Source of the DNA: an uncultured Planctomycetaceae bacterium
GTDB lineage: Bacteria > Planctomycetota > Planctomycetia > Pirellulales > Thermoguttaceae
Length of the DNA: 26,418 nucleotides
Direction: 5' to 3'
Assembly (NCBI GenBank): GCA_964467075.1
Contig: CAYXPN010000017.1
Span: forward strand, 5,051-31,468
A program made the position numbers and the translations under genes. The notes beneath the pieces were generated by a model. That model saw only the letters and a list, made by a program, of their open reading frames with translations, searched no databases and was not told the origin of the DNA. Below, piece by piece: positions 993 through 26,220 of the stretch. Position 1 is the stretch's first letter. Each line of letters starts with the position of its first letter.

Positions 993-2411
993 TCATTGCG
1001 ATCGCGAAAAGCTCTTCTCGCGCGGTGCATAGCCGTATTGGCGCAACTTGCCGCTCAGCGTGCGCACGCCGATGCCCAGGGCCTTGGCCGTGCGCGCCCG
1101 GTGGCCGTCGAAGTGCTCCAGCGTGGCTTCGATCAAGCGGCGTTCCATCTCCTCGAGGCTCAGGCCCACGGGGACGTCGGTCTTGGTGTGCTGCGTGGCC
1201 TTTTCCACAGGCGGCATCAACCAGCGGCGCAACTGGTCCGCGGAAAACCGTCCGCCGTCTCCCAGCACGCTCACCCGCGTAATCAGGTTTTCCAGCTCCC
1301 GCACATTGCCCGGCCAGCGGTACTCCATGAGCAGTTCCATGGCACCGGCATCCGGCGTGCAGGGCTCGCGTGCCAGGCGCCGGGCGGCCCGGGCCGAGAA
1401 AAAGCCGAGCAGCTCGGGGATATCTTCGCGGCGCTGGCGCAGCGGGGGCACGTGGATCGGCAGCACCGCCAGGCGGAAATAAAGGTCTTCGCGAAACCGG
1501 CCCGCCGCCACTTCCGCGGCCAGGTCGCGGTTGGTCGTGGCGATCACGCGCACATCCACGTGGATCGTCCGGCTGGCGCCGACCCGCTCGAAACATTTCT
1601 CTTGCAGCACGCGGAGCAGCTTGGCCTGAAGGTGCAGATCGATCTCGGTCACTTCGTCCAGCAGGATCGAACCGTCGTGGGCCATCTCGAACCTGCCGGC
1701 GCGCGGGGCGACCGCGCCGGTGAACGCGCCGCGTTCGTGACCGAACAGCTCGCTTTCCATCAGGTGGTCGGAGAGCACCGGGCAATTCAGGCTCACCAGC
1801 GGACCCCGGCTCCGATCGCTGGCCGCGTGCAGGCTGCGTGCGACCAGCTCCTTGCCCGTGCCGCTTTCGCCGGTGATCAGCACGGTCTCGGGCGTGGGCG
1901 CGACCTGGGCGATGCGCCGGCGCAGGGCGGCCATCGGCGCACTCGATCCGATCATCACCGGCGCCTGGGTTGCGCCGCCCGGCGCGTCCGGTTGCTCGCG
2001 GTCGAGCAGGCGCCCGTGGCGAAGCGCCTGGGCCACGAGCCGTTCGAGCTGTTCGGCCGAAAAGGGTTTCTCGATGTAGTCGAACGCCCCGTGGCGCATG
2101 GCCTCGACCGCGGTGGCCACCGACGCATGGGCCGTGACCATCACCACGCGCGCCGCACAGCGGCGCTGCTCGAGCTGGACGATCAGCTCCAGGCCGCTCA
2201 TACCCGGCATCTTCAGGTCGGTCACAATGCACTCGTAGGCGTGCGCTGCGATCAGGCGCAGCGCCTCGGCGCCGCTGGAGCAGCAATCCACCTCGTGGCC
2301 GCAGCGCTGCAGCACGTCGGCCATGGACTGGCGCGCCTGGGCGTGATCGTCGACCACCAGCACCCGGCCGGTGGCCACGGCAGCGGTCGGACTCGGGTTC
2401 GATCCACTCAT
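993..2411 (-). CDS. Sigma-54-dependent two-component response regulator (NtrC/FleR/FlgR-like: receiver + AAA+ sigma-54 activator + Fis-type HTH)
   Basis: N-terminal receiver (VLVVDDH...DLKMPGMSG). Central AAA+ domain with Walker A (ITGESGTGKELVARSLH), the GAFTGA motif (ERGAFTGAVAPRAG) and EVTEIDLHLQAKLLRVLQE. C-terminal HTH (RTAKALGIGVRTLSGKLRQYG). Its ATG overlaps the upstream kinase stop (ATGA). Confidence 0.92.
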   Translation of the reverse strand: MSGSNPSPTAAVATGRVLVVDDHAQARQSMADVLQRCGHEVDCCSSGAEALRLIAAHAYECIVTDLKMPGMSGLELIVQLEQRRCAARVVMVTAHASVATAVEAMRHGAFDYIEKPFSAEQLERLVAQALRHGRLLDREQPDAPGGATQAPVMIGSSAPMAALRRRIAQVAPTPETVLITGESGTGKELVARSLHAASDRSRGPLVSLNCPVLSDHLMESELFGHERGAFTGAVAPRAGRFEMAHDGSILLDEVTEIDLHLQAKLLRVLQEKCFERVGASRTIHVDVRVIATTNRDLAAEVAAGRFREDLYFRLAVLPIHVPPLRQRREDIPELLGFFSARAARRLAREPCTPDAGAMELLMEYRWPGNVRELENLITRVSVLGDGGRFSADQLRRWLMPPVEKATQHTKTDVPVGLSLEEMERRLIEATLEHFDGHRARTAKALGIGVRTLSGKLRQYGYAPREKSFSRSQ

Positions 2412-3261
2412 CGAGCAGCCTCCCGGGCGGCCGCGGGAATGCGCAGGGTAAACGCCGCGCCGCCTTGCGCTGGATTGCGCACCGAAACCTCGCCGCCGTG
2501 GACTTCGGCGACGCGCGCGACGATGGTCAGGCCCAATCCGGTGCCGCCCTGCTTGGTGGAATAGAACGGCTCGAAGACCCGCTGCACCGCCTCGCTGCTC
2601 AAGCCCGGCCCCGTGTCGGCCACCTCCAGCGTCACGTCGCGGGAGTCGAACGCCGCGGCGATCGACAGGCGCCCTCCCTCGGGCATGGCGTCCAGGGCAT
2701 TCAGCGCCAGGTTGAGCAAGGCCCGGCGATACATGTGGGGATCAGCCGTGATGAAACGATCGCGGGGCACACGGCAGCGCAGCTCGATCTGCTGGGCTTC
2801 GAGCTGCGGAGCCAGCGACGAGCAGACCTCCTCGACCAGGCGTGCCAGGCAGAAGGTCTGCAACTGCGGGTCGCGATCCGAGGTGAAGTGCAAGAGGTCG
2901 TTCACCGTAGCGTCCAGGGCCGTGAGGCCCGCGGCGATCTTGTCCACGATCTCCTGGCCCTCCCGGTCCTGGTCGCAGCGCCGCCGCAGCAGACTCAGGT
3001 AGAGGGTCACAGGCACCAGGGTGTTGCGCACTTCGTGGGCCACGTGGGAGGCCACCTGGCCGAGATCGGCCAGGCGGTTCTTACGGGCCAGCTCGCGGTT
3101 CTTGCGTTCCAGCTCTTCGTTGAGCCGGTGGACTTCCGCGCGCAGGGTCTCGTGGGTCTGCTCCAGGCGCAGCGTGGCCGTGTGCCAGGCGGCCAGCACG
3201 GTTTCCAGGTCCGCGCTGGCGTCCAATTGGCCGGCTGCGGCGAGTTTTGCGTCCGTGGTCA
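2408..3261 (-). CDS. Cytoplasmic sensor histidine kinase (HisKA + HATPase_c). No transmembrane or sensor domain, as in FlgS/FleS.
   Basis: H-box HVAHEVRNTL, N-box LNLALNALDAM, G-boxes DTGPGL and GGTGLGL. The N-terminus is a ~60-aa coiled coil only. I chose the start at MTTDAK (ATG at 3259-3261). The longer ORF to 3556 would read through a repeat element. The stop overlaps the RR start (translational coupling). Confidence 0.85.
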
Positions 3262-3267
3262 TCTTTC

Positions 3268-3435
3268 GCCTCGCGCTTACGACTCCGACGAACGGTAGCC
3301 ACGCTCGCCAGAGCGTGGGACGACACTTACGAACGCCCTGCAAGAAGCAGGTCGTCCCACCGTCTGGCTTTCGGCGGCTCCAACTGGAACTCTCCTTGTC
3401 AGACACACCCTCGCGCTTATGACTCCGACGAAAGG
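3268..3435. repeat. Composite palindromic (REP-like) element flanked by 27-bp imperfect direct repeats (3268-3294 and 3409-3435)
   Basis: cctcgcgcttacgactccgacgaacgg and cctcgcgcttatgactccgacgaaagg (2 mismatches) flank a 114-bp core. The core contains the hairpin ccacgctcgccagagcgtgg (3299-3318), a 9-bp stem tgggacgac/gtcgtccca, and block ccgtctggctttcggcggctcc. Both hairpin and block are reverse-complement matches to the copies at 9927-9995 and 11280-11365. Confidence 0.85.
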
Positions 3436-3851
3436 TCGATCTGGTGCATCTTCTCGGCCGGGCCCGCGGTATAGGCCCCGCGCGCCTGGTCGGCCAGGTG
3501 GGCGCCCTGCAGGCGTCGGGCCGCCTCGTCCCGGCGCCGGCGCAGGGCCTGTTCACACAGCTTTTCCTGGCCGATGATCTCGGCCAGCAGGGCCTCGCTT
3601 TCGTCGATCTGTGCGGCGCACCTGGCCCGCGCCTCGGCGCTGCGCCAGCGGCGCTCTTCCGGGGCCTGGCCGCGGAAGGGATCCAGGGCGCGTTCGATCT
3701 CCTGCAACTCGATGAGCACGCGCTGCTTGGCGGCCAGCAACTCGAGCAGGCCCGCCATCTCGTCCGCTTCGATCAGCTCGTACTGGGCCCGACCCATTTC
3801 GCGCAGGCGCGACAAAGCGTCGCGCTTGCGTGCCACCAGGTCGGCCAGCAT
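3417..3851 (-). CDS. Small coiled-coil protein, possibly a FlgN-like flagellar chaperone (hypothetical)
   Basis: 144-aa ORF from the ATG at 3849-3851 (MLADLVARKRDALSRLREMGRAQYELIEADEMAGLLELLAAKQRVLIELQEIERAL...). The heptad-like Leu/Glu pattern resembles FlgN-family proteins. The flagellar context (flgB, FlgSR-like two-component system) supports this. The longer ORF up to 4706 overlaps the TPR gene and is rejected. Function assignment is weak. Confidence 0.45.
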   Translation of the reverse strand: MLADLVARKRDALSRLREMGRAQYELIEADEMAGLLELLAAKQRVLIELQEIERALDPFRGQAPEERRWRSAEARARCAAQIDESEALLAEIIGQEKLCEQALRRRRDEAARRLQGAHLADQARGAYTAGPAEKMHQIDLSSES

Positions 3852-3931
3852 CTCGGTCTCATGTTCACTTACCACCAGGCCGGCTCCACTGCTCGCGTGT
3901 GTCGTTGGTAGTCCCGGTGAGATCAGCCATT

Positions 3932-6409
3932 TCAACTTCCCGCCAGTTGGTCCAGCAACCGGCTCCACTCGTCGCGCGTGTAGTTGGTCGTTTTGCCAAA
4001 ATCGGCCTGGGCGTCCAGCCGCGCCAGCACCACCTTGGCCTGCTCCAGCGCCGTGCGCGCCTCGCGCGCCTGCCCCAGCCGGCGGTAGGCCCGGGCCATC
4101 TGCACGTAGGCTTCGAGCACCTCGGGCTGGCGCTGATAGCGGATGGTGGCCGCCCGGTAGGCCCGGATCGCACTTTGGTAGTCGCCCAACTCGAACTGCG
4201 CGGCCCCGCGCGCGAAATAGCAGTTGCGCAAGACAGCCTGCTGGAGGGCCGTGAGCTCGTGGGTCTGTTGCCGCTGTTCGAGGTCGTCCAGCAGTCGGGC
4301 GTAGGCGTCGGCGGCCTCGACGAGCCACTGGCGCACCTGCTGCTGCTCCGCGGTTTGAACGCCGGGTTGCGGGCCCAGCGCACGGCGCGCCGCCACCGCG
4401 TGCCGAAAGGAGCACTGGGCGGCCAGAAAGCGGGCTTCGGTGGCCTGGGGAACGTCGGGATAGCGCTCGACCGCTTCGCTGAGCCGCTGGGCCGCTTGTT
4501 CGTAGTGCCCCTGCACGTATTCCAGTTGGCCCAGGGCGAACAACGATTCGCGCCACTCGCGGCTGGCCGGAGTGAGCAGCTCGCCGATCAGGTTTTCGCG
4601 CAGCAGCGCCTCGGCCTGGTCCAACTCGCCGCGTTCGATATGCGCCCGGGCGGCCAGCAATCGGGCGCGATAGGTGGCCGCGTCGCGCGCGTGATACGTC
4701 AGGCAATCGTCAAAGGCCTGCAAGGCCTCGTCCACCTTGTCCAGGGCCAGCAGGGCTTCGCCCAGAGAGACCAGCGCCAGGGCATGGCGGTTGCGCGTCT
4801 GGTCGGCCAGATAGCTGCGCAAGACGGTCACGGCGTTGCGATAGTCCTGCCCGGCGAGAAACGCCTCAGCCGCCTGCCAAAGATGCTCTGAATAGCTGGG
4901 CGTGGTCACTTCCAGGCGCGCAAGATACATATGAAACTGGGCAGCACGGCGCAGGCGCTCGCGCGCCTCGCGGCGCAAGGCTTCGGCCTGGTGCGGCGGC
5001 GACTGCTCGGCCTGGGCCAGCAGCGACTCGGCCCACTGCCGGCACGCCTCGGCCGAAAGCTCCGCCGCACGGCTGCGCGCAAACAGCGGATGAAACACGC
5101 GCGCCAGTTGCAGCGCCACCTCGAAACGCTGCGTCTCAAGATAGTGCTCATACGTGGCCAGCATCTGCCGGCGCAACTCGTCCAGCGGCAGCCAGGGATT
5201 GCGATAAGCGGCCGGATCGGGAACCGCCTGGAGCAACGCGCGATAGACCGCCAGCGCCTCGGCGTCGCGCCCGGCGCGGCGGGCCAGCTCCGCCTGGTGA
5301 AACGCGGCGGCCAGACCTTCGGGCCACTGCGCATGCAGCTTGCGCACCCGCTCCAACTGGGCCCATGCCGCGCGCCGGTCGTTCATCTCCAGGAAACACA
5401 CGCCGATCAGGTACATCGCCTCTCGGGTGGCACGATTCTCCAGCGTGTCGCGACTCTGGGCCTGGCGCAACGCCTTGACCGCCTGCTGGTACAAGGCGCG
5501 CGCCCGCAGGCGCGCCTCGGCAGAAACCAGCGGATCGCGCGTCAGGGTGCGGGCTTGGGCCATCAACACCTGGGCGCGCACCACCAGGGTCTCGCCCCGG
5601 TGGGCGGACTGGGTCGACACCGCGTCGAGTTGCTCCCGGCACTCGTCAATCCGCTCCAGGCGCAACAGAATTCGGGCCCGCTGCAACAGGGCCTCGTCGC
5701 GCTGGGCGGTCGAAAGGTCGGGCTGGGCCAGCAACTGGGAGTTGTACTGGAGCGCCTCGTCCAGCTTTGGTTCGGCGTCGTCCGCACTGGCCGCGGCCAG
5801 CAGGTAGTAGGTCTGCGCCCGCTGCTCGGGACAGGCCTTGAGCGCCTCGCGCAGCACGACCCGACTGGGCGGCACGCGCTCGCCCAGATACAGACACTTG
5901 CCCAACAAGAACAGCCCCGCGCCTTCTCGCCCGGCCGGAAAGCCGCGGTCCCGGGCCTCTTCCAGATAGCGGGCGGCCAGCAGGTAGCGTGTCGAGCGCT
6001 CGGGTCCCCATGTCTGGTCGGCCTCGCGCGCAGCAACCACACCCAGCACATACGGCGGACCGCCCCATTGCTCCAGCGGCAAGGTGCCGGCCGATTGCAG
6101 GACGCGGGCCATGTCCGCGGCCTCGTCCAGCTCACCCCGGTCCAAGGCCGTCAAGACGTCGGCCAGCTCGGGCGGCGGCTGACGGTTGTAGCTGACCGCG
6201 ATCAGGTACCAGAGCACTCCCACCACGCTGAGCGAGACCAGACCCGCGCCGCCCACCAGCGCCGCGCGCACCGGATGGGCGCGCGCAAAGGCCCGAGCAG
6301 CCGCGGACAGACCCGACAGACGCTGGCCCATGCTCGGCTGCTCGCCGGCCTCGGCGGCCTCCGCGGCCTCGAGCGCCTCGAGGAATTCGGGGCTGAGTTG
6401 GTCCGGCAT
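3932..6409 (-). CDS. Membrane-anchored TPR-repeat protein (825 aa, single N-terminal TM helix), unknown function
   Basis: Long ORF. N-terminus has an acidic stretch then the hydrophobic helix VRAALVGGAGLVSLSVVGVLWYLIAV. The remainder is rich in A/L/R/E/Q helical repeats with TPR-like periodicity (AxxLY, LGxxYxxxGxYxxA motifs such as ALGQLEYVQGHYEQAAQRL and ELGDYQSAIRAYRAA). Confidence 0.75.
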   Translation of the reverse strand: MPDQLSPEFLEALEAAEAAEAGEQPSMGQRLSGLSAAARAFARAHPVRAALVGGAGLVSLSVVGVLWYLIAVSYNRQPPPELADVLTALDRGELDEAADMARVLQSAGTLPLEQWGGPPYVLGVVAAREADQTWGPERSTRYLLAARYLEEARDRGFPAGREGAGLFLLGKCLYLGERVPPSRVVLREALKACPEQRAQTYYLLAAASADDAEPKLDEALQYNSQLLAQPDLSTAQRDEALLQRARILLRLERIDECREQLDAVSTQSAHRGETLVVRAQVLMAQARTLTRDPLVSAEARLRARALYQQAVKALRQAQSRDTLENRATREAMYLIGVCFLEMNDRRAAWAQLERVRKLHAQWPEGLAAAFHQAELARRAGRDAEALAVYRALLQAVPDPAAYRNPWLPLDELRRQMLATYEHYLETQRFEVALQLARVFHPLFARSRAAELSAEACRQWAESLLAQAEQSPPHQAEALRREARERLRRAAQFHMYLARLEVTTPSYSEHLWQAAEAFLAGQDYRNAVTVLRSYLADQTRNRHALALVSLGEALLALDKVDEALQAFDDCLTYHARDAATYRARLLAARAHIERGELDQAEALLRENLIGELLTPASREWRESLFALGQLEYVQGHYEQAAQRLSEAVERYPDVPQATEARFLAAQCSFRHAVAARRALGPQPGVQTAEQQQVRQWLVEAADAYARLLDDLEQRQQTHELTALQQAVLRNCYFARGAAQFELGDYQSAIRAYRAATIRYQRQPEVLEAYVQMARAYRRLGQAREARTALEQAKVVLARLDAQADFGKTTNYTRDEWSRLLDQLAGS

Positions 6410-6596
6410 GGCGTGCCGTCAGAAAATTGAGGGAGGTGGAAAGGGAAAAGCCGACCGAACGCGGCTGCCCCGCGGGCGCGCATGGGGGAAACCCGGCACG
6501 CGGGGCCGTCTAATGCCGATCCGGCTCGCCGGCCGCGCGCACGCGCAAACCCGCACGTGCCCGTTGGGGCTGGGGATGTCGAGGAAAAGGTGCGGC

Positions 6597-6627
6597 TATC
6601 TAGCGGAAAGCGGGCAGACGTGTCAAT
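6597..6627 (-). promoter_or_regulatory. Candidate sigma-70-type promoter for the TPR operon (minus-strand reading TTGACA-17 nt-CTAGAT)
   Basis: The reverse complement of 6597-6627 reads ttgacacgtctgcccgctttccgctagat. That is a perfect -35 hexamer, a 17-nt spacer and a 4/6 -10. It sits ~180 nt upstream of the TPR start codon. Sequence-motif inference only. Confidence 0.3.
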
Positions 6628-6859
6628 GCACGTTTGGGAGGGATTTTCTGCTTGTCTTGCCCGCTTTGTCAGGGCGTGCGCGTGTTTCCGATACTCACCT
6701 GCTTGGCCGGCATGCCCTGTTTATCTAAAAGAAAAGGTGACAGGTACATATATGGGGGATTTTGCGAAGACTGGGAAACCTCGGAAGCACAACGAAGTGT
6801 CTATCGGCAGCCTGCTTTGCCCAAACTCGCCATTATATGCGCCTGTCACCTTGCTTTGC

Positions 6860-6945
6860 TTGGGAGGGCGAGGCTCCCGCCGAGCCGAAGAAGCAATCGA
6901 AAGTTACGGCAACGCGCGCGGCTCGGCGGGAGCCTCGCCCTCCCA
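6860..6945. terminator. Perfect 28-bp-stem inverted repeat (tgggagggcgaggctcccgccgagccg / cggctcggcgggagcctcgccctccca, ~29-nt loop) immediately 3' of the sulfatase gene. Likely a transcription terminator or insulator hairpin.
   Basis: Read directly. The arms are exact reverse complements. Located 17 nt downstream of the sulfatase stop (6962) on its strand. No clean U-tract follows, so an intrinsic-terminator call is tentative. Confidence 0.5.
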
Positions 6946-6961
6946 AACCGTGAAACCCTAT

Positions 6962-8770
6962 TTAGTTGCCCCAGGGCTCCACGTTGCAACGCTTGGCCCA
7001 GGCCTCGTATTCGCGCGACAGTTGCTCGACCAGCACAGGGAAGCGGGGCCCCAGGTCGTGCATCTCCGTGCGGTCCGCCTCCGTGTCGTAAAGCTCCCAG
7101 GGCCCGCGGTGCCGGGCCACCAGCTTCCATTTGCCGTCGCGCACCGCGCGGTTGCCCTCGTGTTCCCAACACAGCACCCCGCGCTGCAGAACGCGACCCT
7201 CGAAGGCGGGCACCAGGCTGCGCCCTTCGATCGGGGTGAGATTGAAGCCGCCGAACTGAGCAGGATAGGAAACCTTCGCAACCTCCAGGCAGGTGGGCAT
7301 GACGTCGATCACGTGGCCGAGCTGCTCGCTCCAGCGGTTGCCCGTTCGGATCACCGCGGGCCAGCGCACGATCATGGGCGTGGCGATGCCGCCCTCGTGG
7401 ACGTCGTGCTTGTAGAGCCGGAAGGGCGTGTTGCTGACATTGGCCCAGGCGATGCCGTAGCTCTGGTAGGTGTCTTCGCCGCCGGGGTCGAAACGCGGAT
7501 CGTTGCCCACTTGCACGGGCCGGCCGTCGTGGGTCTTTTCGGGGATGTGCAGACCGGTCCAGTTCGGAGCGATCTCTTCGGCACACCCGCCGTTGTCGGC
7601 CAGAAACATCACCAGCGTGTTCTGCTCGGCGCCGATCTGCCGGAGCTTCTCCAGCACGCGCCCGATGCCCTGGTCCATCAGGTCCACCTGCGCTGCATAG
7701 ACCTCCATGCGCCGCTGTTGCCAGGACTTGTAGGCGTTCAGCTCCCACTGGCGCACGCGCGGGTCGCGGGGCGTGAGTTCCCACTGGCGCGAGATGACGC
7801 CCAGACCGATCATCCGCTGGTAGCGCTCGTTGCGCAAGGCGTCCCAGCCCGCGGCATAGCGCCCCCGATAGCGCCGCACCACGCTCTCAGGCGCGTGCAG
7901 CGGCCAGTGGGGCGCGGTGTAGGCCACGTAGAGGAAAAACGGCTTGTTCGCCCGCGCGGCCTCTTCCAGATAGAGCACGGCGTGGTCGGTGATCGCATCG
8001 GTGTAGTAATAGTCGCCCGCTTCGGGGCGGCGGATGAAGTGGTTGTCGCGCGTGAGCGTGACCGGATCGAAATAGCTGCCCCCGCCGTGGATGGTGCCGT
8101 AGAACTTGTCGAATCCCCGCTGGAGCGGCCAGTTATACCTCGGGCCCTCCGGGCCGACGAATCGCGTCACGTGCCATTTGCCGCACATCATGGTCTGGTA
8201 GCCCGCGGCGTGGAGCAACTGGGCGATGGTCACACAGCGCTGGCTGAGGTTGCCGCGATAGCCGGGCCGCCGGTGGTCCGTCATCATGTGCCCTATGCCC
8301 GCCTGGTGCGGATACAGCCCGGTCAACAGGGCGGCGCGGGTCGGGCAGCAGCGGGCGCAGTTGTAGAACTGCCGGAAGCGCAGGCCGTCTTTGGCCAGGC
8401 GGTCGAGGTTGGGCGTGAGCATCTCGCCGCCGTAGCATCCCAGATCGGACCAGCCCAGGTCGTCGGCCAGGATGATCACGATGTTGGGCACACCATCGGA
8501 GAGCTGGGCACGGGCCTGCGCCGCCCCGCTCCAGGCCACAAGGGTCATTGCCGCCCAGAGGATCGCTGCCAGGCGGGCCGCAGCCCAAAGGGCACCTGGT
8601 TCGCCCGAGGCGCAGCCCCTGCTTTGTCGATGCTTGGCCTGTCGCACGGCATTGCCTCCTTCGTCTGCGAGACTCGCCCGCCTGCGAAGCTGGTCGGCCG
8701 AGCCCACGCGGCCGGCGCGAAGTCGGCCTGCGAAGCCCGGGGCTGGCCCGCGCCGCCTTCGATCACTCAC
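6962..8770 (-). CDS. Type I sulfatase (arylsulfatase family, formylglycine-dependent), secreted
   Basis: IVIILADDLGWSDLGCYGG...CARCCPTRAALLTGLYPHQAGIGHM carries the C-x-P-x-R FGly signature plus the conserved LTG and metal-binding DD motifs. A hydrophobic signal-like segment ALWAAARLAAILWAAMTLVAWSGAAQA is present. The true start may be downstream of 8770. Confidence 0.9.
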   Translation of the reverse strand: MSDRRRRGPAPGFAGRLRAGRVGSADQLRRRASLADEGGNAVRQAKHRQSRGCASGEPGALWAAARLAAILWAAMTLVAWSGAAQARAQLSDGVPNIVIILADDLGWSDLGCYGGEMLTPNLDRLAKDGLRFRQFYNCARCCPTRAALLTGLYPHQAGIGHMMTDHRRPGYRGNLSQRCVTIAQLLHAAGYQTMMCGKWHVTRFVGPEGPRYNWPLQRGFDKFYGTIHGGGSYFDPVTLTRDNHFIRRPEAGDYYYTDAITDHAVLYLEEAARANKPFFLYVAYTAPHWPLHAPESVVRRYRGRYAAGWDALRNERYQRMIGLGVISRQWELTPRDPRVRQWELNAYKSWQQRRMEVYAAQVDLMDQGIGRVLEKLRQIGAEQNTLVMFLADNGGCAEEIAPNWTGLHIPEKTHDGRPVQVGNDPRFDPGGEDTYQSYGIAWANVSNTPFRLYKHDVHEGGIATPMIVRWPAVIRTGNRWSEQLGHVIDVMPTCLEVAKVSYPAQFGGFNLTPIEGRSLVPAFEGRVLQRGVLCWEHEGNRAVRDGKWKLVARHRGPWELYDTEADRTEMHDLGPRFPVLVEQLSREYEAWAKRCNVEPWGN

Positions 8771-9110
8771 AGTATCCGCAGGCGCCCGTGCGGGGTCAAC
8801 TCGCCCCCGAAGCCGGCTTGGAGGATGGGGCGAGCGGAGGGTGGCACGCCCTCAGAAGGGCGTGACTGGACCACGCAGCACTCACCACGCCCATCGCTGC
8901 GCTGAAGGGCGTGCCACCCGGCCCGGGCCACGCGGCCGCTCGTTCGTGCGCTTTCGCCCTGTCGCGTGTGCGCGATGATGGTCCTCAGGAGGGCTGCGCT
9001 GCCTCGCGGCCGTGCGCGCGGCCGAGGTCATTTCGCCAGGAAATCCCGCTACACGCGAGCCGATCTTCGGGCTGTCCCCGCGGCAGGTCATCGCATAGGA
9101 TAGCAGGTGC

Positions 9111-9894
9111 CATGTCTGAGAGCCGTGTGGTGATCTTCGAGGCCCCAACGATCGACGCGGCCTACCGGCTGCGCAGTGCCTTGGGCCGTGAGGGCATCCC
9201 CGCGGTGGTGCTGGCCAGTTGCGAGACTGGGTCCGGCGACCCCGAGGGCCGGCCGGTTGCCGCGTGCGTGGCCGTCGATCCGGAATACGCCGACCCGGCC
9301 CGGCACATCGTCCGGGTGCTGGAGAGAACCGCGCGCTGGGAGGTGGGCGAGGACCGGGCGGAGGCAGCCGACCGGCAGACCGGGGGCCTGGCAGCGGGGC
9401 CCGCGCCCGAGGATGTCCCGCCCGGCTGGCCGCGATGTCCGAAGTGCCGCGCGCCGCGTTTGACCTGGTGCCCGATCTGCCAGACGGCGGGCACGCGGTT
9501 TGAAGCGGCCGACGACGTGCCGCCGGAGCTTTTCGACGAGCTGGGAGCGGGGGCATCTGCAGCGGAAAGCAGCGGATCGGCCGGCGCCTGCGACACATGT
9601 GGTCGGCCGGCCGCGGCAGCGGGGAAACCGCTGGAACCAGCGGAGCCTGAAGCCGACGCCCAGCGCGCGTCCGAAGCACCGGGCATGGTGTTGTGCCCGA
9701 CGTGCGACGAGCCGTTCGTGCCCGCGTTCGCCCGCCACTGCGAATGGTGCGGTCACGAGTTTGCCGACGGCACGGATTTCACGCCGCTGCCGCAAGATGA
9801 CGGCGAATCGCTGGGGCCGCGCGCGGTGGCGGTCATCGTGGCGTTGGTGGTGCTCGGCGCGCTGCTGGTGGGGTATGTGGTGTACTTGTTGTAG
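9111..9894 (+). CDS. Tail-anchored multi-zinc-ribbon protein with DUF2007-like N-terminal domain (hypothetical)
   Basis: Start chosen at MSESRVVIFEAPTIDAAYRLRSALGREGIPAVV, which fits the DUF2007 pattern. There are four CxxC pairs (CPKCRAPRLTWCPICQ, CDTCGRP, CPTCDEP...CEWCGHEF). The C-terminal TM helix is AVAVIVALVVLGALLVGYVVYLL. The upstream part of the ORF (8911-9110) has no coding character. Confidence 0.6.
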
Positions 9895-10035
9895 CGCGCC
9901 GTCGCCAGACCGCGAATTGGTTCCACGCTCTGGCGAGCGTGGCTACCAGTAGCCGCCGAAAGCCAGACGGCGGACAAAACCGGTCTGTGCACATGGCAAT
10001 CCACGCTCTGGCGAGCGTGGCTACGATTCCAAGAG
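9895..10035. repeat. Cluster of REP-like palindromic repeats: two copies of ccacgctctggcgagcgtggctac (9927-9950, 9998-10021) interleaved with gtagccgccgaaagccagacggcggacaa-type hairpin blocks
   Basis: Direct reading. Same family as the 3268-3435 and 11280-11365 elements. Located in the gap between the convergent zinc-ribbon gene and the glycosyltransferase gene. Confidence 0.85.
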
Positions 10036-10180
10036 GCGAGTGCGGCTACCGACGACGCCCGGCGCCGGCCGCAGCCCGGCCCCGCATGTCCCGCCTGCAA
10101 AACGGGGCTGCGGCCGGTGCGGTGGGTGGCGGATGCGCTGCGGCAGGATACCCTGGCCCACTTGACTGTTGCAGTTGCCT

Positions 10181-11092
10181 TTAGCGCGCCAGCGCCAGGC
10201 TCAGCAACCAGGACAGCACAAACCGCTTGGCCAGGCGCCCGTCGCTCAGCACGCGCAAGGGCCAGCGTCGCAGCAGCAGGTAACAGAGGCTGCGAAACGG
10301 ACGGTAACGATGGGCCTTGTAATAGGCGCGGGCCAGTTCCAGCAATTCGCGCCGTTGGAGCATATCGATCCGTGGTCCCAGCCGGGCGGCCACCACCGGA
10401 TGGCGGCGCAGGTGTTCGACCATGCGCAGCCCCTGGCTCACGTAGCGATCGTACTGTGTGCGTGCCGAGGCATCCACGCGCCGCACCTGCGCCACATGGG
10501 TGCCGCAGAAACGGAATTCCAGTTGGGCGGCCAGCCGGATCAACAACTCGATGTCCTCGCGGTAGCTGAGGTCTTCGCGGTACATGCCCAGGCGCAACAT
10601 GGTGTCGCGCGCGAGGAGATAGCCGTTGTTGTCCATAAACGGTCGACGCACAAACGTCTTCAGCACGTCCCCCTCGACCCTCTCGGCGGCGAAGCTCGCC
10701 AGCGACACCTCGCCCTCGCCGCCCCGCGACAGCCCGTAGGCCACGCCTGCAAATCCCGGATCGTCCAGAAACAGGCGCATGCGGCTCTCCACAGCCCAGG
10801 GCAAGAGCAGGTCGTCGGAATCAAGCATGCAGACGTATGACGCGTCGGTGGCCTGGATGCCGAGATTGCGCGCCGCAGACTTTTCGCCGTTCAACGGCCG
10901 GCGAATCAGGTGAATGCGATCGCGGTAGCGGGCTTGAAGCTGCTCCGAGGTGCCGTCGGTCGAAGCGTCGTCGACCACCACGCACTCGACGTTGGGCCAG
11001 GACTGGCCGAAAACCGAGTCAACCGCCTGGCAGACGTGCGGCCAGCGGTTGTAGGTCGGGATGATGACGGCCACTTTGGGGCGTAGCAACAT
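10181..11092 (-). CDS. Family 2 glycosyltransferase
   Basis: KVAVIIPTYNRWPHVCQAVDSVFGQSWPNVECVVVDDASTDGTSEQL...YVCMLDSDDLLLP is a typical GT-A/GT2 N-terminus with a DxD-like DSDD motif. Confidence 0.85.
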   Translation of the reverse strand: MLLRPKVAVIIPTYNRWPHVCQAVDSVFGQSWPNVECVVVDDASTDGTSEQLQARYRDRIHLIRRPLNGEKSAARNLGIQATDASYVCMLDSDDLLLPWAVESRMRLFLDDPGFAGVAYGLSRGGEGEVSLASFAAERVEGDVLKTFVRRPFMDNNGYLLARDTMLRLGMYREDLSYREDIELLIRLAAQLEFRFCGTHVAQVRRVDASARTQYDRYVSQGLRMVEHLRRHPVVAARLGPRIDMLQRRELLELARAYYKAHRYRPFRSLCYLLLRRWPLRVLSDGRLAKRFVLSWLLSLALAR

Positions 11093-11279
11093 GCCGACAG
11101 CCGGGGGAAAGGGGGATTGAGAGCGGCCCAGAAGCCCACTATGCGTGCTGTCTCCCTGGCAAATCGGCGCATTGCCGCCGAATCTTTAAACCTTTTCTGT
11201 GGATTCCGATCGCCCATCGTTACTAGAAGGAATCGGGAAGATGCGAAGTTTGGGAAACATGCATTACATAGAGAAGAAC

Positions 11280-11375
11280 GGCTGTTCGTAGCCGCCGTCG
11301 CCAGACGGCGGACAAGCGATTCAGCCGATGGCCGGTCGCGTCCACGCTCTGGCGAGCGCGGCTACCGACCTGCCG
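11280..11375. repeat. REP-like composite element (gtagccgccgtcgccagacggcggacaa block + ccacgctctggcgagcgcggctac hairpin)
   Basis: Direct reading. One mismatch to the hairpin consensus. Immediately 3' of the DUF72 gene. Confidence 0.8.
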
Positions 11376-11386
11376 CGGCCGGACGC

Positions 11387-12127
11387 TCATCCCTCGCCCA
11401 GCAGCCGGGCGAACGCCGCGGCGTTTTGCGGTGCATGGGCCTCGTAGTCGTTGTTGAAGAAGGCGTACAGCCTCCGCCCGCCCAGGGGGCGCTCAACGCG
11501 CCGGGCCCACTCGGCCAGTTCCGCCTCGGAGTAGTCATAGCGGTAGAGCTGCTCGCCTTTGCCGTGGAAACGCAAGTAGAGGAAATCCGTCGTGGGCAGG
11601 ATCTCCTCGGGCAGGTGCGGATGGCTCAGCGCCACAAAGCAGGCCGCGTGCCGGGCCAGCAGCTCGCAGACCTCGTCGTCCCACCAGCTTTCGTGCCGGA
11701 ATTCCATTGCGTGGCGCACCCCCTCGGGTACGAATCGCCCCAGCCGGCCCAGGAAGCCATCCAGGCGCGCAAGGTCCTTGTGCAACATGGGCGGCAACTG
11801 CCAGAGCACCACGCGCAGGGGCTTCAGTTGCCCGGCACGCTCACAGAAGGCCGACAAGGCCTCGTCGCAGTCGGCCAGTTTCTTCCGGTGAGTGATCAGG
11901 CGCGAGCCCTTGAGCACCAGATGGAAATCATCCGGCAGCCGTCGGTTCCACGCCCGAATCATGGTCTCCGTGGGCAGCCGGTAGAACGTGGCATTGACCT
12001 CCACGGTCTGAAAACGGGCGGCGTAGAAGGCCAGCCGGTCTGCGCCTCGCACGTCGTCTGGATAGAACGGGCCGCTCCAGTCGTCGTAGGTCCAGCCGGA
12101 GGTGCCCACATAGACTTGTCGGCTCAT
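11387..12127 (-). CDS. DUF72 family protein (YecE-like)
   Basis: Start at MSRQVYVGTSGWTYDDWSGPFYP (ATG at 12125-12127). The VGTSGWxYxxW motif is the hallmark of DUF72. Confidence 0.85.
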   Translation of the reverse strand: MSRQVYVGTSGWTYDDWSGPFYPDDVRGADRLAFYAARFQTVEVNATFYRLPTETMIRAWNRRLPDDFHLVLKGSRLITHRKKLADCDEALSAFCERAGQLKPLRVVLWQLPPMLHKDLARLDGFLGRLGRFVPEGVRHAMEFRHESWWDDEVCELLARHAACFVALSHPHLPEEILPTTDFLYLRFHGKGEQLYRYDYSEAELAEWARRVERPLGGRRLYAFFNNDYEAHAPQNAAAFARLLGEG

Positions 12128-12478
12128 GGCATGCCCCCCAAGGACACTTGGGCCTGGGGGCCCGGAGGCGGAGGCGGCGCGATGAAAGGATCGGGGCCAC
12201 GCAATGGACCACACGGGCAGTGAGCGGGGCCGGGCCCCCAGGGTCCCGATCCCACAGCCCCGCCCATGCTACTGCGGCGCGCATGGTTTCGGTAGGCCGG
12301 GCCGCGCCGGGCAGGGCCTCACAGGCGAAATCGCTGCCTGGTTGCGGCTGGGACTTGGGGGCGTGGGCAAGGCCCTACTTGGCGGCGGGGCTGGGTTGGG
12401 CGTAGAATACCGTGTTTTCGTCCCGCTGGGAGACGCAGTGCATCTGCGCGGGCGGGAATCCTCGATTTCAGGCAGGTT

Positions 12479-18471: not shown

Positions 18472-18590
18472 GCAGCGCCCAGTCGCCCCTACCGACGCCG
18501 CGCTTTCGATCCGTGTGGCCAAAACAGCCACGCCCTTCTCAGCGCGTGCCACCCGGCCGCGCTCGAAAAGAGTCCGCTCCGGCTCGACGA

Positions 18591-20868: not shown

Positions 20869-21603
20869 CGCTGAAACCTTTCCCGAGTCGATTTGCACGC
20901 ATGCAAACTCCCCGCTGATTATTCGCTCGAACCCAGCCGGGCTTGGATTCCGATCGGTCGGGAAGCGCCGGCCGTGGGTGCCGCTCGGCGGGGGATTCGT
21001 TTGCCGTGTCGAAACTGGACTCCTGCAAAATGCCGATCTCGGTTTCGCCACGTCCCACCGGAAGGGGCCCTGCGCCTTGCGGTGTAGGGAAGTTGCGCAA
21101 GTGAGGAAAAGCGTTTCCGCGCTGGCTCCCCCCTCATTCCTGGCCCTCTGCGAGAGGGAAAAGTCGACCACGCTGCGAGAGCGCGGTTGAAAGCTTCGGC
21201 AAGGATTCTCGGCCCACGCCAACCCACAGGGGTGCTGACGCTGCCTCTCGAAAGGCAAGCAAGAGAGCCCCGGACGGATATCACGATAGTCGCATCCCCC
21301 CGTTTGTCAACAGCGCCATTCAGGGGGAAAGCCGCGCCGGATCGAGCACTACGTGCTCGACCGGGCAGCCCGTAGGCTGCGTGCTTGCAGCACTGCTGTA
21401 AACGTCTTCGTGTGGCGAAAATGCCAAGGAAAACGGTGATTCGCGGGGTATGTGTGTATCGCGTCACCCGAACCCCAACGGGGTTCGAGACAAAAGCCCA
21501 GGGTCAGCTTCCGCGGCCGCCGGGCCGCGAAGCGCCACCCTGGGTCATCGAGGGCGCCAATTCCCGCACCTACCCCGAAGGGGTTGGGTAACCGTTCACG
21601 GGC

Positions 21604-21666
21604 CGTCATTGTCGCCTTTCGCTCCGCGAAAGTGGCGCTGCTTTCGCGGAGCGAAAGGCGACTATC
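21604..21666. other. Perfect 22-bp-stem hairpin (gtcgcctttcgctccgcgaaag-tggcgctg-ctttcgcggagcgaaaggcgac)
   Basis: Arms at 21611-21632 and 21641-21662 are exact reverse complements with an 8-nt loop. It sits in the long region with no convincing coding gene, 8 nt upstream of an AT-rich 49-codon ORF. Confidence 0.8.
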
Positions 21667-22259
21667 CACGCGAAATGGCCCGAAAACGGGCAGCGGCCCG
21701 TGAACAGTTAGGACTTGTAAAGGAATTGTTTGCCGAATTCGATGCGCAGCCCCGGGAAGTAATACTCTTACAAGTTCTTACTCGCGGCCTGAAACCCGGG
21801 GTGGCGCGGCCTGGCGGCCGCTGACCCCGGGCTTTGGAATCCAACGCCTTCGGCGTTGACTCGGTCGGCGCAGCGCTCACCACACAGCGGGCAGGAGCCT
21901 TGGCCGAACACTCCCGAAAGATGTTTACAGCACTGGTACAAGCACGCACCCTACGGAAGGCAAAGGGGACAGGCCCATCCGCGCTGCGCGAAAACGCGCT
22001 GGTGCCCCGCGCGCCGCCGCATCCGCGCGCAAGCCGCCAGCCCCGAAGATCCGGACATATATCGCGCCCCTTCGGGGCTGGGACGCTGGGCGTGCCGGAG
22101 CGGGTCGGCGGGTGATGCTGACCACGTCGCCTTTTGCGGGGCTCGGGGCACTTGGTAGGCCGACGTTTCCCGTGGGCTTTCGCAGACGGCCAAATAGGGT
22201 TTCACGCAAGGCCATTTACCATCCTCGGCCCCTGCGGAGCCGGAAGGCCCGCGCATGTC

Positions 22260-22285
22260 CACCTCAGACGGCTGAAGTGCTACGT
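22260..22285. repeat. 26-bp palindromic motif c[ac]c[ct]tcagacggctgaagtg[ca]tacgt, copy 1 (copy 2 at 26195-26220, same orientation)
   Basis: Copy 1 is cacctcagacggctgaagtgctacgt. Copy 2 is cacttcagacggctgaagtgatacgt. The two bracket the tRNA-Arg and the beta-propeller cytochrome gene. Confidence 0.8.
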
Positions 22286-22840: not shown

Positions 22841-23465
22841 CTTCCTGCTTCCTTCCTGCTTTGCGTCGCCGGGAAGTCGGCCGTCTATTCCGGCATCGCC
22901 ATCGATATCCCCGTGGGCAAAGGCTGGGGCACGCAAGCCTCACCCAGTGATCCGGAGGACGTTTATCGCGCCGTCCGCCGCGCACGAGATGCGGGCGCGT
23001 GGGGAGGGGAATCGTCGTCTGTCGGGAGCACGAAGAGATGCACGAGGCCAGCCTGCGAGCCATCGGCCGGGCGATTCGGGAGGGCTGGAGGGGCTGAACC
23101 AAGGGCTTGCCCGATACTCGTGGCGATTCCGCCCGGCGCCAAACCAGGCAGTCCGAGCCGATGACCGAGGGCCTTGTGCCCACTTCACTCGGCTGAACTG
23201 TTACGCAGATCGAAGGTCGATCGCCGCGGCGCTGATCGCCCCCAGCGGCCGCCGGCACGCGCCGTCAACCCCGATGGCGAGCAAGGCGGGAAAGGACGTC
23301 GATTGCGAGAAGCCGACGGCATTGACAATTGTCGAAGCCCAAACACAATTCATTGCAGACGATGAAGCCAACCACATGCGACGCTGCGCCATGCGCGAGC
23401 CGCGGCGGGAGTGAGTCGCGCGTGAAAGAGGCGCCGACGTATTCATACCAGTTACGCAGGAGGCG

Positions 23466-26194: not shown

Positions 26195-26220
26195 CACTTC
26201 AGACGGCTGAAGTGATACGT
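26195..26220. repeat. Copy 2 of the 26-bp cttcagacggctgaag palindromic motif
   Basis: cacttcagacggctgaagtgatacgt, a direct repeat of 22260-22285 (23/26 identical). Confidence 0.8.

Follow-up and report, generated by a model that had tools for sequence, protein, structure and literature searches.

GTAG-tagged palindromic repeats between genes of an uncultured Planctomycetaceae bacterium and their likely relation to Y1 transposases

What places the same small hairpin again and again between the genes of a planctomycete? The question is raised by a 26,418-nt stretch of contig CAYXPN010000017.1 (hereafter the window, meaning the whole stretch that was analysed), which comes from an uncultured Planctomycetaceae bacterium. 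An initial annotation had noticed there a dense family of palindromes at four intergenic sites, and likened it to repetitive extragenic palindromes (REPs) and bacterial interspersed mosaic elements (BIMEs). We consider it probable that the window repeats are GTAG-tagged REPs, and we infer that a Y1 HUH transposase encoded elsewhere likely moves them. This reading is carried by the repeat and its structure, the covariation and strand asymmetry of its stems, its occurrence in many genomes, and the differences between relatives in where it is present.

Hairpin units and their pairing

Between positions 3295 and 11365, the window carries nine elements of one family, arranged as four tail-to-tail A/B pairs and one truncated copy. 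Read on the opposite strand, hairpins A and B share one design, in which a 5'-GTAG head leads directly into a G+C-rich stem of 8 bp closed by a 4-nt loop, GCCA. Stem type A has the arms CCACGCTC/GAGCGTGG (full unit GTAG-CCACGCTC-GCCA-GAGCGTGG), and stem type B the arms CCGCCGTC/GACGGCGG (full unit GTAG-CCGCCGTC-GCCA-GACGGCGG). The hairpin A 24-mer, CCACGCTCTGGCGAGCGTGGCTAC, was found with at most one mismatch at four sites, 3295-3318 (-), 9923-9946 (+), 10001-10024 (+) and 11342-11365 (+), against none expected from 100 shuffles. Hairpin B occurred at three sites, 11288-11311, 9949-9973 and, reverse-complemented, 3357-3381. GTAG hairpins whose stem measures 7 bp or more number six in the window, against a mean of 0.56 and a maximum of 4 in first-order Markov resamplings. 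The GTAG head is intact in seven of the nine copies, the remaining two having GGAG and a degenerate form. The recurrence in both orientations, partly as pairs, that had first been noticed is thus borne out, and the four copies of hairpin A are real, but two of them, placed at 9927-9950 and 9998-10021, were off by 3-4 nt. Block B recurs as described, except that its variant read as AAAG is really AAAGC, one base longer, with the stem cut to 6 bp.

The copies lie at three sites (strands of the elements are given below for the GTAG reading; the match strands of the 24-mer are the opposite ones). At site 1, between co-directional genes for an FlgN-like protein and a histidine kinase, the first arm of the pair is a type A unit, GTAG CCACGCTC GCCA GAGCGTGG (3295..3318, +), and the second arm a type B variant with a degenerate head, GGAG CCGCCG AAAGCCAGA CGGTGG (3357..3381, -); the 38-nt spacer between them (3319..3356) has complementary ends (GACGAC...GTCGTC). 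Site 2, between convergent genes, starts with a degenerate type B unit, GTAGCGCGCCGTCGCCAGACCGCG (9891..9914, +), whose GTAG includes the TAG stop codon of the gene at 8911-9894, and which stands tail to tail with a type A unit (9923..9946, -) across a spacer of 8 nt. It is followed by a type B variant, GTAG CCGCCG AAAGCCAGA CGGCGG (9949..9973, +), tail to tail with a further type A unit (10001..10024, -) across 27 nt, and by a truncated REP, GTAGCCGCACTCGCC, with only the head and the left arm (10035..10049, -). The degenerate unit at 9891-9914 and the truncated copy at 10035-10049 had been missed. Site 3, located 3' of a DUF72 gene and 5' of a GT2 glycosyltransferase gene, consists of a type B unit, GTAG CCGCCGTC GCCA GACGGCGG (11288..11311, +), and, 30 nt away and tail to tail with it, a type A unit with a G·T wobble, GTAG CCGCGCTC GCCA GAGCGTGG (11342..11365, -). 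All nine copies are intergenic, lying outside the coding frames of a gene model based on a codon-position G+C frame plot and Pfam.

As single strands, the window pairs fold better than shuffled sequences (z -3.1 to -3.8); the fold is a single long hairpin with bulges or else two short ones. All four thus combine an inverted REP pair, a short spacer and a long fold, as REPINs (REP doublets forming hairpins) do; copying of a doublet as a whole, spacer included, was found only in the metagenome-assembled genome (MAG) Dive96_bin2.57 and not in the window. The window copies do not form a CRISPR array, being inverted and irregularly spaced, and no cas domains occur among the Pfam matches. The suggested REP/BIME organisation is right as far as the GTAG palindromes, their extragenic position and their arrangement, mostly as inverted pairs, are concerned. 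The repeats resemble the BIMEs of Escherichia coli in that two REP types form a mosaic at gene ends and alternate in orientation, but they are without the conserved inter-REP linker motifs of E. coli BIMEs: the spacers vary from 8 to 38 nt and their sequences are unrelated.

Stem covariation, distribution and known relatives

Covariation was examined in 37 unique variants, gathered with a pattern that left stem pairing unselected. In this sample 95.6% of the stem cells were paired, and changes on both sides of a pair accounted for 38 cells over four pairs. None of 500 shuffles equalled the observed covariation score, and pairing fell to 22-49% in a control in which the partner columns were slid. 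Among the non-Watson-Crick cells, G·T on the GTAG strand occurred 20 times and A·C, which is G·T on the other strand, once; the variants are related, so that the count gives no clean probability, but the direction of the bias is clear. The bias shows that selection acts on the single-strand hairpin carrying 5'-GTAG, and the functional hairpin is the one formed by the GTAG-bearing strand. Such one-strand selection is what would be expected for a substrate of the E. coli TnpA-REP protein, whose structure (4ER8) is summarised in PMC6006769 as recognising 5'-GTAG and the hairpin. A tendency to G·T pairs is likewise mentioned for GTAG REPs in the text of PMC3733652.

The motif is not confined to the window, although such confinement is what the initial annotation had named as a refutation of its reading. 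A scan with the pattern GTAGCCNNGCTCGCCAGAGCNNGG, covering one genome per species (figures for the listed loci are lower bounds), found it in at least 109 stretches; these belong to about 51 assemblies, which come from Planctomycetota and Verrucomicrobiota. None of the listed loci overlaps the window. Carriers are many in both phyla and include the cultured Roseiconus nitratireducens JC645 (NZ_VWOX01), Schlesneria and Pirellulaceae in the former, and a complete Limisphaerales chromosome (OZ245740.1), Prosthecobacter and Victivallales in the latter; the densest listed MAG has at least 16 blocks of 8 kb with the motif. The viral contigs searched for the motif gave no match. Six of the loci (L017, L021, L034, L064, L071 and L089) are labelled 'Candidatus Kuenenia' but have a G+C content of 55-60% and a gene content typical of Planctomycetia, so that the taxonomic labels of some records are doubtful.

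Over the listed loci and the window (110 sources), the family consensus is GTAG + CC-NNNN-TCGCCAGA-NNNN-GG, and the GTAG head is present in 206 of 229 copies. The four inner stem pairs co-vary (ACGC/GCGT, ACGT/ACGT, ACGG/CCGT, AAGC/GCTT, GCGT/ACGC, GCAC/GTGC and ACCG/CGGT, together with GCCG/CGGC, found in the window). The usual arrangement elsewhere is a tail-to-tail pair as in the window, often of an A-type unit and a second stem type. When the open reading frames (ORFs) of the 109 listed loci were clustered, the recurrent neighbours were families abundant in the Planctomycetes-Verrucomicrobia-Chlamydiae (PVC) superphylum and not transposases: a cluster that was read consisted of sulfatases, and size alone makes DUF1501 and PSCyt-type proteins the probable content of the top clusters.

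The suggestion that the repeats might define a previously unannotated family of this lineage needs qualifying: the family is not specific to the lineage but ranges over two phyla, and GTAG REPs of PVC bacteria were already published in 2013. Di Nocera, De Gregorio and Rocco (2013; PMC3733652) describe 24 GTAG families, several of them in Rhodopirellula baltica and Opitutus terrae, with heterodimers and with tail-to-tail dimers of variable spacing, and report many tyrosine transposases for R. baltica. The window repeats agree with these GTAG REPs in the 5' GTAG tag, 6-9 bp stems and short loops; in having sub-families whose stems differ by complementary bases and often contain G·T pairs; and in variable-spacer tail-to-tail dimers and heterodimers, an extragenic position and occurrence in the PVC superphylum. 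They differ from the R. baltica and O. terrae families in that the REP-encoded peptides listed there do not fit, a comparison made by peptides only. Among the families GTAG-1 to GTAG-24, compared through the listed peptides and not the figure sequences, none matched CCACGCTC GCCA GAGCGTGG, and the 20-mer of stem and loop was not found in the literature text searched. The window repeat is therefore a new, or at least an unnamed, member among known GTAG REPs.

The likeness extends to the REPIN/RAYT systems (Bertels and Rainey 2011; PMC3116915), RAYT standing for REP-associated tyrosine transposase: two inverted REPs can form one long hairpin, are dispersed between genes and, in one MAG, are amplified as a unit. 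The differences are that the window pairs are A/B heterodimers with unrelated spacers, not copies of one master REPIN, and that no flanked single-copy RAYT for the window sequence was found at the inspected loci. The REPIN-associated RAYT groups described by Bertels in 2017 are reportedly proteobacterial.

The mildly unusual aspect of the family is that head and loop are common to two phyla. It is conceivable, if somewhat unlikely, that GTAGCC-NNNN-TCGCCAGA-NNNN-GG persisted with an invariant head and loop in at least two phyla (Planctomycetota and Verrucomicrobiota/Lentisphaeria), with lineage-typical stem variants and absent from viral contigs, either as one of the oldest REPIN populations known to be kept vertically or because it was served in trans by a conserved, unflanked PVC Y1 transposase. 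If the cross-phylum conservation does reflect long vertical persistence, the family would be a test case for REPIN populations as long-lived residents of genomes; otherwise, it adds a routine case to a known class. GTAGCC....TCGCCAGA....GG would also provide a simple marker for the evolution of REPs and Y1 transposases outside the Proteobacteria, the group on which nearly all studies of REPIN/RAYT systems have been made. For annotation, the family explains why contig breaks, small spurious ORFs and odd palindromes between genes turn up in Planctomycetota and Verrucomicrobiota assemblies.

Transposases, turnover and rival explanations

A mechanism by a Y1 transposase is likely. The A and B units stand tail to tail as heterodimers with variable spacers, which is a REPIN-like arrangement; the GTAG strand, when single-stranded, would be bound and cut by a Y1 HUH transposase (RAYT or IS200-like), and this enzyme would copy or move units into intergenic DNA. 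At gene 3' ends the hairpins may have a putative secondary role, serving transcripts as barriers or stabilisers at their 3' ends.

GTAG hairpins and Y1 transposases are clearly partners in the PVC phyla. In 719 kb around 127 copies at the listed loci two Y1 genes were found. The first, at L083 (3828-4505), scores 72.8 bits against NCBIfam REP_Tyr_transpos (cut-off 80) and 22.8 bits against Pfam Y1_Tnp (cut-off 23); inverted pairs of another hairpin, GTAG-TCCGGACC-CCTT-GGTCCGGA, lie on either side of it. The family of this 226-aa RAYT has more than 3,000 relatives, many of them named RayT by their sources, and most of the 80 metagenome loci of this family are bracketed by GTAG hairpins of their own. 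The second, at L010 (6356-6817), belongs to a highly conserved 154-aa IS200-like family with 655 relatives. All 16 loci of this family that were read have nested hairpin terminal repeats, X = TAGCCGCGAAGCGGCG and Y = GTAG-CCnnGnGC-GYCA-GCnnnnGG. The 10 distinct proteins with loci read are all flanked by GTAG hairpins, the locus of P0243 being readable on its downstream side only. Members of the 154-aa family (L010 6230-6900; L193-L208) are 60-68% identical and keep the nested X-Y-X repeats from Planctomycetota to a Chlamydiales MAG; at L203, the upstream X-Y unit occurs in four to five tandem repeats.

Both types of unit, the PVC REPtrons of the 226-aa RAYT and the 154-aa genes flanked by terminal inverted repeats (TIRs), share with the window repeats the GTAG head, the 8-bp stem and a loop of 3-4 nt, and the Y hairpin of the 154-aa family also shares the GTAGCC start and, at L193, the GCCA loop; their stem sequences differ from that of the window hairpin. 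The 154-aa family is a candidate for a role in trans, its Y hairpin being of like format.

Comparison with a relative shows turnover of the repeats. A syntenic metagenome contig, L190, was found by a homologue search with the kinase, and its genes are 80-87% identical in nucleotides to those of the window. It is without REPs at the orthologous sites 1 (the FlgN-kinase junction) and 3 (the DUF72-GT2 spacer), but the same family is present in it at three other places: downstream of the GT2 gene, downstream of fliG and, as a B/A pair, downstream of the zinc-ribbon gene. The REP pairs are thus missing from two of three sites in L190.

The FlgN-like/kinase junction is itself built of tandem units of about 28 nt (ACCTTTCGTCGGAGTCGTAAGCGCGAGG-like), which carry the upstream stop codon and the downstream ribosome-binding site (RBS). 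In the window there are two of them, flanking the REP pair: copy 1 (3269..3296) includes the RBS of the kinase gene and the context of its start, and the FlgN-like gene ends, stop codon included, in copy 2 (3409..3436). L190 has five degenerate tandem units at this junction (9840-10000). We considered the direct repeat 3269-3296/3409-3436 as a target duplication and rejected it, since L190 has its five tandem units without a REP; the repeat is a tandem unit that already existed there.

Several observations weigh against movement of the window repeats by a Y1 enzyme. No Y1 transposase bracketed by the window's hairpin was found among about 95 transposase loci inspected: the two Y1 genes near listed copies are both flanked by other hairpins, the 80 RAYT loci have other stems and the window's hairpin at none, and the Y hairpin read at 16 loci of the 154-aa family agrees with the window hairpin in format but not in sequence. 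The initial annotation had proposed that the repeats could be RAYT substrates; Y1 genes with GTAG-hairpin flanks are indeed common in PVC phyla, but with none flanked by the window's own hairpin this mobilisation stays inferred. The spacers of the window pairs being unrelated, these pairs are not recent copies of one master pair. Finally, the pair is in some genomes part of a longer unit that has imperfect terminal repeats of its own and is bordered by T(T/A)A on both sides, which a miniature inverted-repeat transposable element (MITE) of DDE type would fit equally well.

This last observation is the basis of the best surviving rival, in which the pairs would be MITEs moved by a DDE transposase of IS5 or IS630 type and the GTAG hairpins just parts of their terminal repeats. 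Its strongest case is the MAG Dive96_bin2.57, where 13 of 14 matches to the CCATGC stem variant are near-identical units of about 135 bp enclosing the pair, with sharp borders, unrelated flanks, imperfect terminal repeats and T(T/A)A at either border, indicating that repeat-bearing units have recently multiplied there; in several other MAGs the pair lies inside outer inverted TAGTGCTTTGTCAA segments. These outer segments, however, are missing from the window copies and from most others, single and truncated units exist, and the spacers range from 8 to 38 nt. The window has no target duplication, and T(T/A)A borders were seen in one other MAG only. Moreover, an invariant GTAG, covariation and a G·T bias on one strand are traits of Y1 substrates and not of DDE ends, and REP dimers inside longer palindromes are on record in the text of PMC3733652. 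We therefore regard a DDE origin as improbable. In the records of MAG JAJRWU01 the 13 near-identical units of about 135 bp, each built around the REP pair, lie at loci L006, L012, L023, L033, L041 and eight more, a MITE-like amplification.

It is less probable still that the hairpins are immobile and functional, kept by selection without any transposase as transcript 3'-end stabilisers, terminators or attenuators. The copies do all lie at gene 3' ends or between genes, their folds are stable and one GTAG provides a stop codon; but there is no T tract 3' of the stems, terminator-like sites numbered 4 against 4.9 expected from shuffles, and no Rfam family matches the REP hairpins. The same 24-mer moreover stands beside unrelated genes in about 51 assemblies, is missing from orthologous sites in a close relative, and takes either orientation with respect to transcription, yet the G·T bias tracks the GTAG strand. 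Hardly any weight, lastly, can be given to binding sites for a regulator, a nucleoid protein or gyrase, conserved in sequence and not in structure: the GTAGCC head does not vary between phyla, nor do the loop and its closing pairs (TCGCCAGA), as would be expected of such sites, but compensatory substitutions inside the stem keep pairing and not sequence, the copies lie at 3' ends rather than promoters, and no partner gene is conserved, the recurrent neighbours being abundant PVC families.

Genomic setting and other repeats in the window

The window has a G+C content of 67% and encodes a sulfatase, a hydrazine-synthase-alpha-like domain protein with cytochrome c motifs, flagellar genes, ArgJ and ArgC, a base composition and a set of genes that suggest a planctomycete. 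Around site 1 the genes, all on the minus strand, are those of a sigma-54 response regulator (993-2411), the histidine kinase (2408-3262), the FlgN-like protein (3417-3929) and a TPR protein (3932-6409). The sulfatase (6962-8770, -) and the zinc-ribbon protein (8911-9894, +) precede site 2, and the GT2 glycosyltransferase (10181-11092, -) and the DUF72 protein (11387-12214, -) enclose site 3.

The window contains other repeats as well. Three hairpins around a tRNA-Arg gene (22260-22283, 23181-23206 and 26195-26220) belong to a second family of GTAG type, GTAG/GTAA/GTAT + CACTTCAG-CCGT-CTGAAGTG, so that the genome has at least two REP families. Hairpins of yet another family, with GGTGGCACGCCCT / AGGGCGTGCCACC as their basis, occupy two intergenic regions (8841-8853/8902-8914 and 18525-18554).

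Directly 3' of the sulfatase gene lies an inverted repeat of 28 bp, perfect in its pairing and with a loop of 31 nt (6860-6946), adjoined by an imperfect 31-nt inverted repeat (6734-6764/6822-6852). The Rfam search of the window returned only tRNA and a spurious, below-threshold match of a microRNA precursor to 6860-6946. A 587-bp segment (21370-21956) is bounded by 39-nt inverted repeats that are 87% complementary and start with CGTAGG; it contains a palindrome with a 22-bp stem (21611-21662) and several smaller hairpins, and the internal ORF tested has no Pfam match. This segment is possibly a TIR-flanked element that has decayed. A 55-nt direct repeat with identical copies (1-55 and 87-141) stands at the window's left edge, and either copy holds a 7-bp hairpin (GGCCACG...CGTGGCC).

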